A stretch of 64,000 bases of DNA from Stutzerimonas stutzeri (GCF_038561965.1 NZ_CP139348.1:1546340-1610339); one strand, 5' to 3'. Shown: positions 36,401 through 39,941, counted from the first letter of the stretch. The notes: generated by a model not told the origin, from the letters alone. Numbers and translations: made by a program.

Positions 36401-38691
36401 ATCACGACGCGGCGCTGATCCTGGCGTGCCTGCTACCGCTTCGCGACAGCGCTGGGCTGCTTAGCCATACGCCGATGGCGCGAGGCACTGGCTGTTTTTT
36501 CTGGAACAGCGTCCAGGGTGAGGCCATTGCGTTGGAGTGGCCGGAGCGCGCCCGCACCAGTCGGCATATTCAGCAGCTCTTTGGTCGCCGTGATGGACTC
36601 GATCAGCTTGAGGCGGAAATCGCTTCGGCGATTGAGCGGTTCGCGGCCGACGAAGGGATGACGCTGCCGTGCGGGCTGCCAATAGACGCAGCGCGCTATC
36701 TCGTACAGGAGCTGGCTGGCGAACGCATCGAATTCGTCTTCAGCAAATACGCGCGCCAGCTGCTTGTCTCGCTGCAGGCAAAGCTGGAAGCGGCACGTGT
36801 CTGGGATGGCTATGTGCAGACATTGGAGCGTCTGCAGGCGCGCCCAGCGGCACGGTGGGCGCTGGTGGACAACTGGTTGCAAGGACTCTGCAATCAGGGC
36901 GAGCTGTCCGACCTTGCTCGTTACATCCCCGAAGCAGTGGCGCTGGCTCTTTTGCCGGAGGGGCAGAGCAGACGGGTCACTGAAGTGGATCTGCGCTTTG
37001 CTGTTGAAGAGCTGATGGGTGACCACCCACGCATTGAAGGCCAGCGGCTGACGCTTTCGCTGGATGACTATTTCGAGCGGCTCGAGAACCATCGCCGTCG
37101 CTTCCTTCCACAACTTCGGCGTTATCAGGCCTTGCGTCAGGACGTGATCGGTCGCGAGCGCGACGCGCTGCGCCTTGGCGAGTTCAAGCCGCGGCCGCTG
37201 AGTTCTTTCGTGCGCAACAAGTTGATCAACGACGTTTATCTGGGGTTCATTGGCGACAACCTGGCCAAGCAGATGGGCACTGCAGGAGAGAACAAACGCA
37301 CCGATTTGATGGGGCTTTTGATGCTCATCTCGCCGCCTGGCTACGGCAAGACAACCCTGATGGAATATGTCGCCCATCGATTGGGGCTGATCTTCATGAA
37401 GATCAACGGCCCCGCTTTGGGTCACGAGGTTCGCTCGGTGGACCCCGCACAAGCGCCCGATGCCACCTCGCGCCAGGAGCTGGAGAAACTCAATCTGGCG
37501 CTGGAGATGGGAAACAACGTGATGCTCTATGTCGATGACATCCAGCACACCCATCCCGAATTCCTGCAGAAATTCATCTCGCTCTGCGACGGTACGCGGC
37601 GTATCGAAGGCGTCTGGAAGGGCAAGACCAAAACCTATGACATGCGCGGCAAAAAGTTCTGCGTAATCATGTCCGGCAACCCCTATACCGAATCCGGTGA
37701 CGTCTTCAAAATCCCTGACATGCTTGCCAACCGTGCGGATATCTACAACCTCGGCGACACGCTTGGAGGCATGCAGGAAGCCTTCAGCCTTAGCTATATC
37801 GAGAATGCGTTGACCTCCAATCCGATTCTTGCGCCGCTGGCTACTCGCGACATGGCCGATGTCTATCGGCTGGTCGACAAGGCTCAGGGCAAGCCGTTTT
37901 CCGCCAATGAGCTGTCGTACAGCTACAGCGCCGCCGAGATCAACGAGATCACCGCTACGCTCGAACGCTTGATGCAAGTGCGCGATGTTGTAGGAAGGGT
38001 CAACCAGCAGTACATCGTCAGCGCCGCGCAGGCCGACCAGTACCGTAGCGAGCCGCCGTTCAAGTTGCAGGGCAGTTACCGCAACATGAACAAGATGGCT
38101 GAGAAGATCTGTTCGGTGATGAACCAGGCTGAGCTGTTGCAGCTGATCGCCGATCACTACCAGGGTGAAGCGCAGTTGCTCACCACCGGTGCCGAGGAAA
38201 ACCTGCTCAAGCTTGCCGAGCTGCGCGGCAATATGACGGACGCTCAGGTCGAGCGCTGGGCGCAGATCAAGCGTGACTTCATGCGCAACAAGGCCATGGG
38301 CGGCAGTGACACCGATGTCGGGGGTCGCGTAGTCGCGCAGCTCAATGATCTGGTCGAAAGCGTGCGCGGGCTGAGCATTGGCAAGTCCGACCGTGATGAG
38401 GCGCGTATTCCCTGGGAGCAACTGCTTAGCGGGCTGGATAATCTCGGCCGGCTAAGACCACAGGTAGAGGTCGTCGCACCGCCTCAACCAGCCGTACAGA
38501 AGCTGCTGGAGAATCTGGCCGACAGCCTGCAGAACAGTTTTTTGCCGCTGATCAAAACCATGGATAAGAAGATCGACATCGACCTGCGTACTCACCATCG
38601 GATGCTGGAGATATCCGCTCAACTGCGTGAGCTTGGCGAACATCTCGGCCAGGAACAGCGCAACGTCGAGCCCCACGATGGAATGCCGTGA
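33445..38691 (+). CDS. giant 1748-aa protein with a C-terminal MoxR-like AAA+ ATPase domain
   Basis: Walker A LISPPGYGKTTL and Walker B NVMLYVDDIQH near residues 1330-1420. A beta-rich N-terminal ~400 aa, then ~900 aa of helical sequence. Host-like codon usage; RBS aagga upstream. Confidence 0.85.
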   Translation: MMSDVQAENTQDILDKAVAQGGAYEVLHKRLQEQGLRLRHITESLNEERLEAFGSSRMEVVGRVRIRTENNCTARDIVQVGDSLLFGYNVFLGLKKETRVEDVFSIYRLSEQAEGYEAQAVSLEGSFLAQTSFVNDFNELYTYYKNTRLLQLIVRDGKLLASFQIGERVTDIRVFRWSISNDGKDVRYIDNRGERDIALPAPFDFEWQKTSREMAVNGRHPHLNILDTLFVETIGGDLTVKVENNTDDGLGIYREAVLDKTQSLDDAQIEYARLGSLILLKVLPYREEQWRYLVFNSLTRSVERLDAIGLACVQLPEDHGIIFPGGYYLQNGESKAFEQSMDGMRFKRAVRSPNGEDVQYIFYHPEEGRSALFTYNMIDRQLQNPIFGHGYARLEDGRMVIFSAEGSEPTRIHPMQIWQTPFCTDDFAARQPARSGFFGRIGNAELVRGVSDLFNLSREIDAPQISVQRYTQLCQNTRRLFDAYHWLGDAQCQGLALLLREIAATGELVLDEFEKVESIRQQSSRAMAEAQTRQKALLSGLLTDSWDRVQQFVEALNAINSQRGQLLTIRDYRYIDVSRIDAMEAELLEAQERASLATSRFLASDAALEPYLLELSDHDAAAQKAETVTQLNEPLAGMQDMAAGLDMLSGLMASLSIDDATERTRIVESISEVYALLNQAKARAEQRRKGLGSAETVAQFGAQFKLFSQGITNALAQASDPERCDEQLSRLLVQLEELESQFGDHEQFLGDILSKREELLETFEAHKQSLLDDRQRRAQGVLDAASRILDSLGRRTARLNLAEELNAFFAADPLILKLREMVGRLRDLKDSVKADDVEARLKSARDQAVRAMRDKSELFEAGGNVIRLGPRHRFSVNTQELDLTLLPRGDQLYLHLTGTDFLEPLRDSELEALREFWQVSLESESEALYRAEYLAGEVLAAADAGQDGLDINSLKQLLADREALTRRIRDFAAPRYREGYEKGIHDHDAALILACLLPLRDSAGLLSHTPMARGTGCFFWNSVQGEAIALEWPERARTSRHIQQLFGRRDGLDQLEAEIASAIERFAADEGMTLPCGLPIDAARYLVQELAGERIEFVFSKYARQLLVSLQAKLEAARVWDGYVQTLERLQARPAARWALVDNWLQGLCNQGELSDLARYIPEAVALALLPEGQSRRVTEVDLRFAVEELMGDHPRIEGQRLTLSLDDYFERLENHRRRFLPQLRRYQALRQDVIGRERDALRLGEFKPRPLSSFVRNKLINDVYLGFIGDNLAKQMGTAGENKRTDLMGLLMLISPPGYGKTTLMEYVAHRLGLIFMKINGPALGHEVRSVDPAQAPDATSRQELEKLNLALEMGNNVMLYVDDIQHTHPEFLQKFISLCDGTRRIEGVWKGKTKTYDMRGKKFCVIMSGNPYTESGDVFKIPDMLANRADIYNLGDTLGGMQEAFSLSYIENALTSNPILAPLATRDMADVYRLVDKAQGKPFSANELSYSYSAAEINEITATLERLMQVRDVVGRVNQQYIVSAAQADQYRSEPPFKLQGSYRNMNKMAEKICSVMNQAELLQLIADHYQGEAQLLTTGAEENLLKLAELRGNMTDAQVERWAQIKRDFMRNKAMGGSDTDVGGRVVAQLNDLVESVRGLSIGKSDRDEARIPWEQLLSGLDNLGRLRPQVEVVAPPQPAVQKLLENLADSLQNSFLPLIKTMDKKIDIDLRTHHRMLEISAQLRELGEHLGQEQRNVEPHDGMP

Positions 38692-39233
38692 AGCGAGCGC
38701 TCGGTGAGCTGCGCTTGCTGGCCGTGCTGGCCGGCAGCCTGGTGCTTGTGCAGCTCGCTAACAGCTTTACCGGCGGTGCGCTGAACGTATGGGGGTTAGT
38801 GCCGCGTCAGGTGCAGGCCCTACCTGGCATCCTGATCGCGCCCTGGCTGCACGGCGGCTGGGCGCACCTTCTAAGCAATCTCAGTGGGCTCATGATTCTC
38901 GGGTCACTGGTGTTGCTGCGCTCCCAGAGTGATTTCGTTCTGGCAAGCATTTTCATCATCGTTGGCAGCGGCGGGTTGGTGTGGTGCTTTGGTCGAACCG
39001 GCGTGCACATCGGCGCTAGTGGCTGGCTGTTTGGTTTCTGGGGGCTATTGCTGGCACGTGCCTGGATCGACCGTAGCCTGCTTGACCTGTTGCTGGCGGG
39101 GCTGGTGTTCATTTTCTACGGCGGTTGGCTGTTCGGGCTATTACCGCGTGACGGGGTTTCCTTCGAATACCATTTGGCCGGTGCGTCGTGCGGTGTGCTT
39201 TACGCTGTGCTGTCGCGTAGTCGGCGACTCTGA
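38688..39233 (+). CDS. rhomboid family intramembrane serine protease
   Basis: The GTG start overlaps the giant gene's stop (GTGA). Six transmembrane segments with an HxxxN motif (WAHLLSN), catalytic GASG (HIGASGWLFG) and a catalytic His in the last helix (EYHLAGASCG). Confidence 0.8.
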   Translation: MKRALGELRLLAVLAGSLVLVQLANSFTGGALNVWGLVPRQVQALPGILIAPWLHGGWAHLLSNLSGLMILGSLVLLRSQSDFVLASIFIIVGSGGLVWCFGRTGVHIGASGWLFGFWGLLLARAWIDRSLLDLLLAGLVFIFYGGWLFGLLPRDGVSFEYHLAGASCGVLYAVLSRSRRL

Positions 39234-39248
39234 CAAAAAGGATTTTGT

Positions 39249-39941
39249 GTGGATTTCAATCGACTCGACCAACAATTGCGCGACAGCTTGGCCGATCTGC
39301 GCCTGAGCAATGAAGAGCGCGACGAGTTGCGCCAGCTGGGCAGCGAGCTGACAGTTGACCAGATACGCTTCCTGCGTAATCGGGCTTTTGCCTTGGTCCG
39401 CGAGCTCAGTCGTGAGCCCGCGAACATCGAGCCTGCGCTTAAATGGCTGGAGCAGGTGATCAAGACGCTCGATGCCTGCTCCACGCCAGTCAGGACAGAG
39501 CAGGCCAGCGCACATTTCAGTCCGGGCGAAAGCTGCCGTCGCAAGATCCGCGATCTCTGCCGGCAGGCGCGCAAGAGCGTGGATATCTGTGTTTACACAA
39601 TTTCCGATGATCAGCTCAGTGAGGAGATTCTGGCCTGCCACCAACGTGGCGTAACTGTGCGGGTGATCAGCGACAACGAGAAACAGTATGACGCGGGCAG
39701 CGACATCCAGTGGCTGCGCGATAAGGGCGTGCCGCTGCGTATCGACTCTGGCCCCTACCACATGCATCACAAGTTCGCCCTGTTCGACGGGCGCTTACTA
39801 CTCAACGGCAGCTTCAACTGGACCCGTAGCGCGACCACCAGCAATGAGGAAAATCTGCTGGTGATCGATCACCCACAATTGCTGGCCGATTACGCGCGCG
39901 AATTCGAGAGCCTTTGGGCGCGTTATGCGGATAATTGTTGA
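39249..39941 (+). CDS. phospholipase D-family protein with a single HKD motif
   Basis: HxKxxxxD...N motif HMHHKFALFDG...NGSFNWT in the C-terminal ~130 aa, with a ~100-aa helical N-terminal domain. GTG start 6 nt after an aaaaagga RBS, 15 nt after the rhomboid gene. Confidence 0.8.
   Translation: MDFNRLDQQLRDSLADLRLSNEERDELRQLGSELTVDQIRFLRNRAFALVRELSREPANIEPALKWLEQVIKTLDACSTPVRTEQASAHFSPGESCRRKIRDLCRQARKSVDICVYTISDDQLSEEILACHQRGVTVRVISDNEKQYDAGSDIQWLRDKGVPLRIDSGPYHMHHKFALFDGRLLLNGSFNWTRSATTSNEENLLVIDHPQLLADYAREFESLWARYADNC

Follow-up and report, generated by a model that had tools for sequence, protein, structure and literature searches.

The closest described counterpart of the locus considered here is the bacABCDEF operon of Pseudomonas aeruginosa (PA3732-PA3727 / PA14_16140-16200; Macé 2008; Wallart 2024), which encodes a DUF2170 protein (BacA), a PspA protein, a short NfeD protein, the flotillin PaFlo3, a giant ATPase and the product of a final small gene, BacF. 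In strain PA14, bacA to bacF were found by RT-PCR on one transcript, and in a bacA mutant BacE and BacF were raised 8.9-fold and 6.1-fold respectively. PA3728-32 are induced together under phage infection and were raised in all phage-infected samples. BacF is not named as a PLD-family enzyme in the papers describing the operon (Macé 2008; Wallart 2024). The same operon type was described as CesT/Tir-PspA-YqiJ/YuaF-Band-7/flotillin-AAA+, with a PLD (HKD) hydrolase present ‘in some Proteobacteria’ (Ravi et al. 2024, PMC11237479). The word ‘rhomboid’ is absent from the main text and supplement of that work, as is any link of the rhomboid subfamily discussed below to a second, polyamine-type CesT/Tir-PspA operon.

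Beyond these operons, the mitochondrial SLP2-PARL-YME1L (SPY) system, which also contains an AAA+ enzyme, and prokaryotic NfeD(STOPP)-stomatin pairs each bring together an SPFH scaffold and a membrane protease. An earlier note on this DNA had stated that flotillin-scaffolded rhomboid proteolysis is known in some systems; such proteolysis is documented for mitochondrial SPY, but not for bacteria.

The Stutzerimonas operon

The window analysed here is a stretch of 64,000 nucleotides from Stutzerimonas stutzeri (NZ_CP139348.1:1546340-1610339). In it, genes for a BacA/DUF2170 protein, a YjfJ-type PspA, a YqiJ/short-NfeD-like protein, a YqiK-type flotillin, a 79-residue TerB/EF-like protein, a 1748-residue ATPase, a rhomboid and a PLD protein follow one another on the plus strand. 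This cluster is the Stutzerimonas form of bacABCDEF, with which it shares gene order and families, and the rhomboid and PLD genes are the last cistrons of this inner-membrane stress operon. The PLD gene is in the bacF position by synteny, and in a sister species (locus L029) the final small gene of bacABCDEF is itself a PLD gene; the linkage of PLD to the cluster is thus already known. In P. aeruginosa-type loci, unlike in the Stutzerimonas locus, ATPase and PLD are not separated by a rhomboid. The order given comprises eight genes, and the operon has also been counted as nine. The same array of DUF2170, PspA_IM30, YqiJ-like, flotillin and DUF3686 ATPase genes, on one strand here, was found in 59 related loci.

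The first gene, a bacA homologue (28896..29516, plus strand), encodes a DUF2170 (CesT/Tir-like) protein with a 65-residue N-terminal extension (Pfam DUF2170, E 1.4e-51), which scores 333 bits against the NCBIfam model ‘biofilm formation regulator BacA’ (cut-off 300). A sigma-54 promoter 5' of this gene was sought as TGGCAC-N5-TTGCW with at most two mismatches; there was no match in 28312-28896, and matches across the window occur at chance level. The bacB homologue (29536..30231, plus strand) encodes the YjfJ-type PspA/IM30 protein (Pfam PspA_IM30, E 7.8e-53), in which a hydropathy check found no transmembrane (TM) segment. The bacC homologue (30308..30952, plus strand) was assigned to the YqiJ/short-NfeD position from its place in the operon and from published descriptions (PMC11237479; PMC13086221); by hydropathy several TM segments precede a soluble C-terminal part in its product, and neither Pfam nor a BLAST comparison with E. 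coli YqiJ gave a match. The YqiK-type flotillin (bacD/PaFlo3 homologue; 30980..33022, plus strand; 680 residues) is 28% identical to E. coli YqiK over 453 residues (E 1e-39), has a single N-terminal TM segment and varies between 54 and 91% identity across loci; Pfam and PDB sequence searches gave no match to it. The small gene that follows (33101..33340, plus strand; AAGGAG upstream) encodes 79 residues with two DGxxDxxE repeats, TerB/EF-hand-like in character. Its product has 29 invariant columns in nine loci and sub-threshold matches only (TerB, E 0.013; calmodulin, E 0.003). This gene lies 3' of the PLD gene in L123, L141 and L144 and was detected, within the locus set examined, in just a subset of Pseudomonas-type loci. 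The bacE homologue (33445..38691, plus strand) encodes the 1748-residue AAA+ ATPase (Pfam DUF3686, E 1e-206; DUF7902; AAA_5), of which the Walker region alone matches solved structures (RuvB, E 0.005). The operon is bounded on its 3' side by a convergent gene (39964..41799, minus strand) for a TPR protein with an N-terminal TM segment, identified from the ORF list and Pfam TPR matches.

The PLD protein

The PLD gene (39249..39941, plus strand) encodes 230 residues in two domains, a conserved, acidic four-helix domain at the N-terminus (residues 1-80 approximately) and a Nuc/Zucchini-type catalytic domain (residues 86-228 approximately; Pfam PLDc_2, E 2.6e-30). The single motif, H173-x-K175-x4-D180-x6-G187-S188-x-N190, is invariant in 43 diverse relatives, which bears out the single-HKD assignment of the earlier note. 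Because there is one HKD per chain, a dimer would be required for the active site, by analogy with Nuc and Zucchini. The signal peptide and TM segment that the same note had proposed to look for were both sought and neither was found, the N-terminus MDFNRLDQQLRDSL being hydrophilic.

A profile search of the PDB placed PLD6 first (E 1.3e-34), followed by Nuc (1e-17) and NucT (1e-11), and Foldseek aligned mouse Zucchini with 35-36% identity over 133 residues. PLD6 (MitoPLD, Zucchini), the structure of which was deposited as ‘mitochondrial cardiolipin hydrolase’, is therefore the closest solved relative and is likewise single-HKD. The protein differs from it in having the bacterial four-helix domain instead of an N-terminal membrane anchor, and in lacking the Zucchini CCCH zinc ligands: ‘ASAHFSPGES’ is aligned to ‘CPCGLPHGES’ of the human sequence, with no Cys pair. 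Nuc (from pKM101) and NucT have the same small single-HKD fold (Foldseek TM-score 0.68-0.75, target-normalised) but are more distant and are exported. The family-specific helical domain sits where Nuc has its signal peptide and PLD6 its anchor. Of the two classes that had been left open for this protein, Nuc-like and cardiolipin-synthase-like, the first is retained, the sequence predicting a cytoplasmic enzyme of the Nuc/Zucchini-PLD6 branch, and the second is not, there being one HKD, no TM segment and, among solved structures, PLD6/Zucchini and then Nuc as the nearest relatives. Cardiolipin and phosphatidylserine synthases (Cls, Pss) have two HKD motifs per chain, with TM helices in ClsA. 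PssA and PLD1-type structures gave weak fold matches only (Foldseek).

Among PLD genes from the 80 closest species, 59 have the ATPase upstream, and it had been asked whether the homologue would mostly lie outside the cluster; roughly one in four of the closest homologues is found on its own, in unrelated surroundings. The rhomboid lies between ATPase and PLD in 29 of the 59. Roughly half of the ATPase-PLD clusters, the P. aeruginosa group included, therefore have no rhomboid, and in 28 of these 30 the PLD start falls about -4 to +20 nt from the ATPase stop (the other two carry a 1.9-kb insert). PLD is thus the usual immediate downstream partner of the ATPase, with the rhomboid as an optional insertion between them.

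The rhomboid and its genomic context

The rhomboid gene (38688..39233, plus strand) encodes 181 residues (Pfam Rhomboid, E 4.7e-18). Its TM2 carries the H-x4-H-x3-N motif (H55, H60, N64), TM4 the Gly-x-Ser-Gly motif (G109-A-S111-G112) and TM6 the catalytic histidine (H162), all of them invariant in 24 relatives. A structural model (pLDDT 86, pTM 0.84) aligned with GlpG at a Foldseek TM-score of 0.70-0.76 over about 175 columns. Motifs, model and Pfam match uphold the earlier assignment and identify a minimal six-TM intramembrane serine protease with its catalytic set intact, which is predicted to be active. The six-TM core, Ser-His dyad and TM2 motif are common to GlpG, AarA and YqgP, although identity to GlpG is about 20%. 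Compared with these proteins there is no extra cytoplasmic or seventh-TM domain, and in the short L1 loop W35-G36-L-x-P39-R40 (G36, P39 and R40 invariant) may stand in for the WR motif (W136-R137 in GlpG). Rhombosortase (TIGR03902) was considered and rejected, the score being 26.6 bits against the NCBIfam cut-off of 84.

A further difference from GlpG, AarA and YqgP is a dedicated genomic partner, the PspA system. Eighty loci were collected around rhomboid relatives, of which five were too short to judge. In 67 of the 75 informative loci the rhomboid lies directly 3' of the giant ATPase (35) or of a DUF2170-PspA pair (32), and in eight it follows neither. Loci of the DUF2170-PspA type, of which L005 is an annotated example, contain neither ATPase nor flotillin. 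The rhomboid had previously been tied to these two genes in particular; since 32 of the 75 relatives follow DUF2170-PspA in the absence of both, its constant partner is instead the YjfJ-type PspA dyad. Judged by gene neighbourhood, the subfamily occurs almost only beside YjfJ-type PspA systems. This association appears not to have been reported previously and provides a context in which a bacterial rhomboid could be tested.

Rhomboid and PLD also occur as a pair in the absence of the ATPase (L076, L069), in L069 adjoining an NfeD-Band_7 pair, a single case. Some rhomboid-bearing clusters have no PLD, and stand-alone copies of both genes are known. The slot 3' of the rhomboid is taken by an SF1 helicase in L004, and L144 has the same gene set in permuted order. 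Clusters that have a rhomboid and those that lack one showed no difference in the N-terminal TM segments of flotillin and YqiJ-like protein.

A possible role in membrane repair

The operon identity, the two protein assignments and a mechanism of membrane-patch repair together form the best explanation, and one that we regard as probable on the whole. PspA and flotillin would assemble beneath a damaged patch of the inner membrane and the ATPase would remodel this assembly. The rhomboid may cleave one or more membrane-anchored proteins within the patch, although PspA and BacA, its sole partners in both contexts, have no TM segment to cut. The indifference of the flotillin and YqiJ-like TM segments to the presence of a rhomboid and the stand-alone PLD homologues also count against this explanation. 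The PLD protein would dimerise, be anchored at the patch by its N-terminal domain and hydrolyse an anionic phospholipid (cardiolipin or phosphatidylglycerol to phosphatidic acid), altering local curvature and favouring resealing. This activity is the preferred reading for the PLD protein, at roughly even chances. It is favoured by the membrane-bound or membrane-associated nature of all other operon products, by the name under which the PLD6 structure was deposited and by the NfeD-Band_7 neighbour in L069. Against it, the small bacterial single-HKD relatives with known biochemistry (Nuc, NucT, BfiI) are, to our knowledge, all nucleases. The firmly established activity of Zucchini is RNA cleavage, the lipid activity of PLD6 being disputed, and the fusion of some closely related catalytic domains to HHH_3, CCCH zinc-finger or lamin-tail (LTD) modules points to nucleic acids.

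It is possible, if rather doubtful, that the PLD protein is a nuclease effector, with the PspA-flotillin-ATPase system sensing a breach of the inner membrane (entry of phage DNA, or lysis from within) and the tethered enzyme cutting DNA or RNA in defence or abortive infection. Membership of the Nuc/NucT/Zucchini group, the domain fusions, the phage response of PA3728-32 and the helicase of L004 would all suit such a role, as would sub-threshold NCBIfam/PADLOC matches to NucT, DrmC, DpdK and MkoB/C. These scores, however, are far under the family cut-offs and reflect the shared PLD domain only. PADLOC system-specific models gave generic PLD-domain and coiled-coil matches, and no other component of the operon matched a system model. 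The cluster is moreover a conserved chromosomal operon across genera and not a variable defence island, no other product binds nucleic acid, the Zucchini zinc ligands are absent, and the partner of PLD is an intramembrane protease and, in one locus, NfeD-Band_7.

An extended form of the lipid reading, which we consider unlikely, is that the operon is a bacterial counterpart of mitochondrial membrane quality control, with an SPFH scaffold, a rhomboid, an AAA+ protein, a PLD6-type enzyme converting cardiolipin to phosphatidic acid and the ESCRT-III-like PspA. The likeness to SPY and NfeD-stomatin is an analogy only, and a protease domain is missing from the ATPase. Were it true, the disputed lipid activity of PLD6/Zucchini would be ancestral, and the rhomboid subfamily would be the dedicated processing protease of PspA-mediated membrane repair.

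It is very improbable that rhomboid and PLD are passengers, housekeeping genes at the 3' end of the operon functionally unrelated to the PspA system. Half of the ATPase-PLD clusters do lack the rhomboid, some rhomboid clusters lack PLD, and stand-alone copies exist; but 67 of 75 rhomboid relatives lie directly 3' of ATPase or PspA in two operon types, the junctions overlap or are separated by few nucleotides, the gene set recurs permuted in L144, and in PA14 BacF shares both transcript and regulation with the rest of the bac genes.

The ATPase-rhomboid junction

The rhomboid GTG (38688-38690) overlaps the ATPase stop TGA (38689-38691), giving the GTGA (38688..38691, plus strand) at the coordinates previously read. 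A four-nucleotide stop/start overlap is an ordinary operon feature and unremarkable alone. An RTGA overlap is nevertheless kept in 46 of 64 ATPase-rhomboid junctions (19 of 29 genome loci and 27 of 35 metagenome loci), a retention exceeding chance expectation, and the others all fall between -14 and +29 nt. The conserved overlap is compatible with translational coupling, as the earlier note had proposed, and with re-initiation. Its further claim of stoichiometric co-expression is rejected because overlap does not imply stoichiometry.

Position 38688 is the earliest possible start in this frame. The only other early candidates, TTG at codon 10 and GTG at codon 13, would truncate TM1. A downstream in-frame ATG with its own promoter had been raised against coupling; the first such ATG is codon 69. 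A start further 3' (codon 10, codon 13 or a Met18 equivalent) with expression independent of coupling is highly improbable: three database homologues are annotated from the Met18 position (P0168, P0174, P0184) and the Shine-Dalgarno before 38688 is weak (GGAA), but position 18 here is CTG, not a start codon, the residues 5' of it are conserved as protein, a later start would take part of TM1 (residues 2-27 in the GlpG-like model, pLDDT 88-97), the RTGA overlap is retained in 46 of 64 junctions, and a search within the 3' end of the ATPase gene gave no promoter-like site.

At the next junction, the spacing and separate ribosome-binding site already attributed to the PLD gene were both recovered. 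Fifteen nucleotides separate the rhomboid stop (39231-39233) from the PLD GTG (39249), with a Shine-Dalgarno-like AAGGA (39238..39242, plus strand) 6 nt 5' of the start codon, and PLD homologues start MDFNRLDQ at the same position as the protein in the window.

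Gene order and the ATPase-rhomboid junction

The 1748-aa ATPase, in which Pfam recognises DUF3686, DUF7902 and AAA_5 domains, is terminated by a TGA at 38689-38691 (+ strand). The rhomboid ORF (ending at 39233, + strand; Pfam Rhomboid, E 4.7e-18) opens with the GTG at 38688-38690, the earliest start possible in its frame, and is separated by a 15-nt spacer containing AAGGA (39238-39242, + strand) from a 230-aa PLD-family ORF that begins with GTG at 39249 and ends at 39941 (+ strand; PLDc_2, E 2.6e-30). A convergent TPR gene (39964-41799, - strand), identified as an ORF with Pfam matches, closes the array. 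An earlier note, made from the sequence alone, had described this layout and both domain assignments correctly, including the GTG start of the rhomboid, the 15-nt spacer and a ribosome-binding site before the PLD gene. Relatives of the rhomboid align from the same first residues, and position 18, a methionine in most relatives and the annotated start in three database entries, is CTG in the window. As later starts would also truncate TM1, these comparisons favour initiation at 38688.

Conservation of the junction was surveyed in 80 species-level genome loci anchored on the PLD gene and in 80 rhomboid-anchored loci from metagenomes, in each of which the ATPase stop and candidate rhomboid starts were located. 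The four-nucleotide RTGA overlap is present at 19 of 29 ATPase-rhomboid junctions in the genome set and 27 of 35 in the metagenome set; in both sets the remaining junctions all lie between -14 and +29 nt, an example being the TAAnnnATG of Cellvibrio. This conservation is compatible with co-transcription and translational re-initiation and fits the coupled translation proposed in the earlier note. The accompanying proposal that co-expression is stoichiometric finds no support, as a conserved overlap carries no information on stoichiometry.

Relationship to the bac operon

The window has a G+C content of 61% and the cluster proteins are 97-100% identical to those of Stutzerimonas (the Pseudomonas stutzeri group). 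Upstream on the same strand lie genes for a BacA/DUF2170 protein, PspA/IM30, a multi-TM protein and a 680-aa flotillin-like protein. The first of these scores above the cut-off of the NCBIfam model 'biofilm formation regulator BacA' and the last is 28% identical to E. coli flotillin YqiK over 453 residues (BLASTP, E 1e-39). In P. aeruginosa this cluster is known as bac (PA3732-PA3729; PMC2587700), and Wallart et al. (PMC10948618) used RT-PCR to extend it to the six-gene operon bacABCDEF. In a bacA mutant BacE (PA14_16190) is increased 8.9-fold and BacF (PA14_16200) 6.1-fold (PMC10948618), and phage infection induces PA3728-PA3732 together (PMC12041424). In L029, a locus of P. paraeruginosa, the PLD gene lies directly 3' of the ATPase gene. 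By synteny the PLD protein is therefore BacF, so its place in the bac cluster has been published before; its PLD-family nature is not discussed in the bac papers.

Several further features of the cluster were observed. The flotillin gene (30980-33022, + strand) encodes its most conserved protein, with 54-91% identity across gamma- and betaproteobacteria. This protein matched no sequence model in Pfam, NCBIfam or PDB and is recognisable solely when compared directly to E. coli YqiK. In the BacA homologue DUF2170 is preceded by a 65-aa extension (28896-29090, + strand), KKEVWILPEHSVRLAALEKRM, which in sequence resembles a ribbon-helix-helix motif. Just 5' of the homologue's gene (28840-28885), two copies of ACATGTG, spaced about 26 nt from each other in TTACATGTGAGC and ATCACATGTGCT, might serve as an operator. 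A search for a sigma-54 site upstream of the bacA homologue found none, and matches to the pattern are no more frequent in the window than chance predicts. A two-mismatch match to the -24/-12 consensus, GGGCTCGTTGCTTGCA (33404-33419, + strand), 26 nt upstream of the ATPase start, is for that reason no more than a lead for an internal promoter.

The rhomboid and its association with PspA

When the rhomboid was aligned with its relatives (24 sequences, 44-96% identity), residues H55, H60, N64, G109-A-S111-G112 and H162 proved invariant, and by sequence these make up the complete catalytic set of TM2, TM4 and TM6. The AlphaFold model (pLDDT 86, pTM 0.84) superimposes on E. coli GlpG with a TM-score of 0.70-0.76 over about 175 columns at about 20% identity. 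The protein is thus modelled as a minimal six-TM rhomboid of the active type that has no extra domains.

Of the 80 rhomboid-anchored loci, 75 are informative, the other five being too short to judge. The rhomboid directly follows the giant ATPase in 35 loci, with the PLD gene next in 30, clearly not next in four and one locus too short to tell. In 32 loci it directly follows a DUF2170-PspA pair that lacks flotillin, ATPase and PLD, and in eight it follows neither. A YjfJ-type PspA system therefore adjoins 67 of the 75 informative members across two operon designs, and as DUF2170 and PspA are the only genes common to both designs, the constant partner of this rhomboid subfamily is PspA. The second design is exemplified by P. 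synxantha (L005, 8612-14674), with the order DUF2170, PspA, rhomboid, Ion_trans_2, DUF2491, DUF350, DUF1190 and GSP_synth, and corresponds to the second, polyamine-type of the CesT/Tir-PspA operons described by Ravi et al. (PMC11237479). Similar loci, with K+-channel-like and glutathionylspermidine-synthase-like members, number 31 in the metagenome set (for example within L120-L167). The word 'rhomboid' is absent from Ravi et al. and its supplement, and in the full-text literature no paper linking rhomboids to CesT/Tir-PspA operons was found; queries with DUF3686 likewise gave no prior description. The bac-type cluster and its PLD member are already known. No earlier account seems to exist of the rhomboid insertion, of its conserved coupling or, most notably, of the near-exclusive tie of the subfamily to operons with YjfJ-type PspA.

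Individual loci depart from these arrangements. Stand-alone relatives of the rhomboid occur in L001, L002, L003 and L006, the first with a Zn_ribbon_21 gene just upstream, and full clusters with the rhomboid but no PLD gene in L004 and L007. In L004 (10662-13916) the gene after the rhomboid encodes a 1084-aa SF1 helicase (AAA_11/AAA_12), which may be coincidence or may point to a role in nucleic-acid metabolism for genes in that position. In some clusters, such as L048 (9425-9976) and L083 (9425-9970), an extra gene separates rhomboid and PLD; it encodes a double zinc-ribbon protein in Litoribacillus and a multi-TM protein in a Cellvibrionaceae MAG.

Context and family of the PLD protein

The 80 PLD-anchored species loci are the highest-ranking of at least 592 matches to the PLD protein. 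ATPase, rhomboid and PLD occur in that order in 29 (the stutzeri, mendocina and oleovorans groups, Phytopseudomonas, Cellvibrio, Oceanospirillales and Limnobaculum), and in 28 the PLD gene follows the ATPase at once, starting about -4 to +20 nt from its stop (the P. aeruginosa group, Lysobacter, Hydrogenophaga, Ideonella and Aquabacterium). Two more have a 1.9-kb insert between ATPase and PLD, and 21, one of them uninformative, have no ATPase in reach (Stenotrophomonas, Tahibacter and others). The rhomboid seems to be an optional addition, inserted between the ATPase and the PLD that partners it. Independence of the PLD gene from the cluster in most genomes, which the earlier note had named as contrary evidence, is not seen among these 80 top-ranking loci out of at least 592 matches. 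Crude ORF clustering found no conserved neighbour of the stand-alone homologues, whose contexts vary. The rhomboid-PLD pair is kept without the ATPase at two loci. In one of these, a Cellvibrionaceae MAG (L069, 8805-12691), PLD, rhomboid, NfeD and a stomatin-type Band_7 gene lie in a row, and a divergently oriented gene upstream encodes a lysyl-PG-synthase TM-domain protein; L069 alone among 170 loci has NfeD-Band_7 beside the pair.

The motif H-x-K-x4-D-x6-G-S-x-N is present once and is invariant across 43 relatives (37-48% identity). The signal peptide or transmembrane segment for which the earlier note had proposed a search was not found, nor was any other hydrophobic segment. In the structure model residues 1-80 form a four-helix domain that is conserved family-wide, with D16 and E23 invariant and L10, F47, W66 and L67 nearly so; it had no significant match in Pfam or PDB. 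A TerB-like identity for this domain is unsupported, profile-profile comparison with the cluster's 79-aa protein giving 20% probability. A search of 1.84 billion cluster representatives returned 476 proteins at E ≤ 1e-30. Of the 150 top-scoring ones, most have a length of about 220-245 aa and span both domains, so that the two-domain form is a sizeable family. The family profile matched PLD6/MitoPLD/Zucchini (E 1.3e-34) ahead of Nuc (1e-17) and NucT (1e-11), in agreement with Foldseek (mouse Zucchini, 35-36% identity). The protein lacks the membrane anchor of PLD6, the zinc-finger cysteines of Zucchini and the signal peptide of Nuc.

Possible functions

The operon structure, intact active sites, folds, conserved junctions and phyletic linkages are established, and a role at the membrane can be suggested. 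PspA and flotillin would gather at damaged inner membrane and both be remodelled by the ATPase, as suggested by Ravi et al. (PMC11237479). The rhomboid might then cleave membrane-anchored proteins at the damaged site, where the PLD protein would be kept through its N-terminal domain.

We favour hydrolysis of an anionic phospholipid as the activity of the PLD protein, a reading with about an even chance of being correct, because the context is wholly membrane-bound, the gene is paired with an intramembrane protease and the nearest characterised relative, PLD6, reportedly has cardiolipin-hydrolase activity. That the protein is a nuclease is a real if lesser possibility: to our knowledge every characterised small bacterial relative is a nuclease, RNA cleavage is the accepted activity of Zucchini, and fusions to HHH, CCCH or lamin-tail domains occur in near relatives. 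A further reason is the response of the P. aeruginosa operon to phage infection (PMC12041424). Charge is uninformative, since the catalytic domain, with a pI of about 6.2, is close to neutral, like the aligned PLD6 segments. A comparison with defence systems gave generic domain matches only. The cardiolipin-synthase-like option of the earlier note can be dropped, given the single HKD, the best match to PLD6/Zucchini and the weak fold matches of two-HKD lipid synthases. Phospholipid hydrolysis or nucleic acid cleavage by BacF, as a PLD6/Zucchini-like member of the virulence- and biofilm-associated bac operon, now becomes a concrete biochemical question for the mechanism of that operon.

Substrates and physiological roles are known for just a handful of bacterial rhomboids, and a subfamily wired almost always to YjfJ-type PspA operons narrows the search for a substrate and a trigger condition. 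No TM segment is present in PspA or BacA. Those of the flotillin and the YqiJ-like protein probably have an N-out orientation, which would suit rhomboid cleavage. Comparison of clusters with and without the rhomboid showed no systematic difference in the N-terminal TM segments of these two proteins, and gave no support to the role as substrates suggested for them in the earlier note.

In the 423-nt 'gap' between flotillin and ATPase lies a strongly conserved gene for a 79-aa protein (33101-33340, + strand), with AAGGAG as a strong ribosome-binding site. Its product has two DGxxDxxE repeats, and its matches to TerB and EF-hand-like proteins are sub-threshold only. In L123, L141 and L144 the gene instead follows the PLD gene and so seems to be a mobile member of the same system; L144 (1-11576) has the permuted order YqiJ-like, flotillin, ATPase, rhomboid, PLD, 79-aa gene, DUF2170 and PspA.
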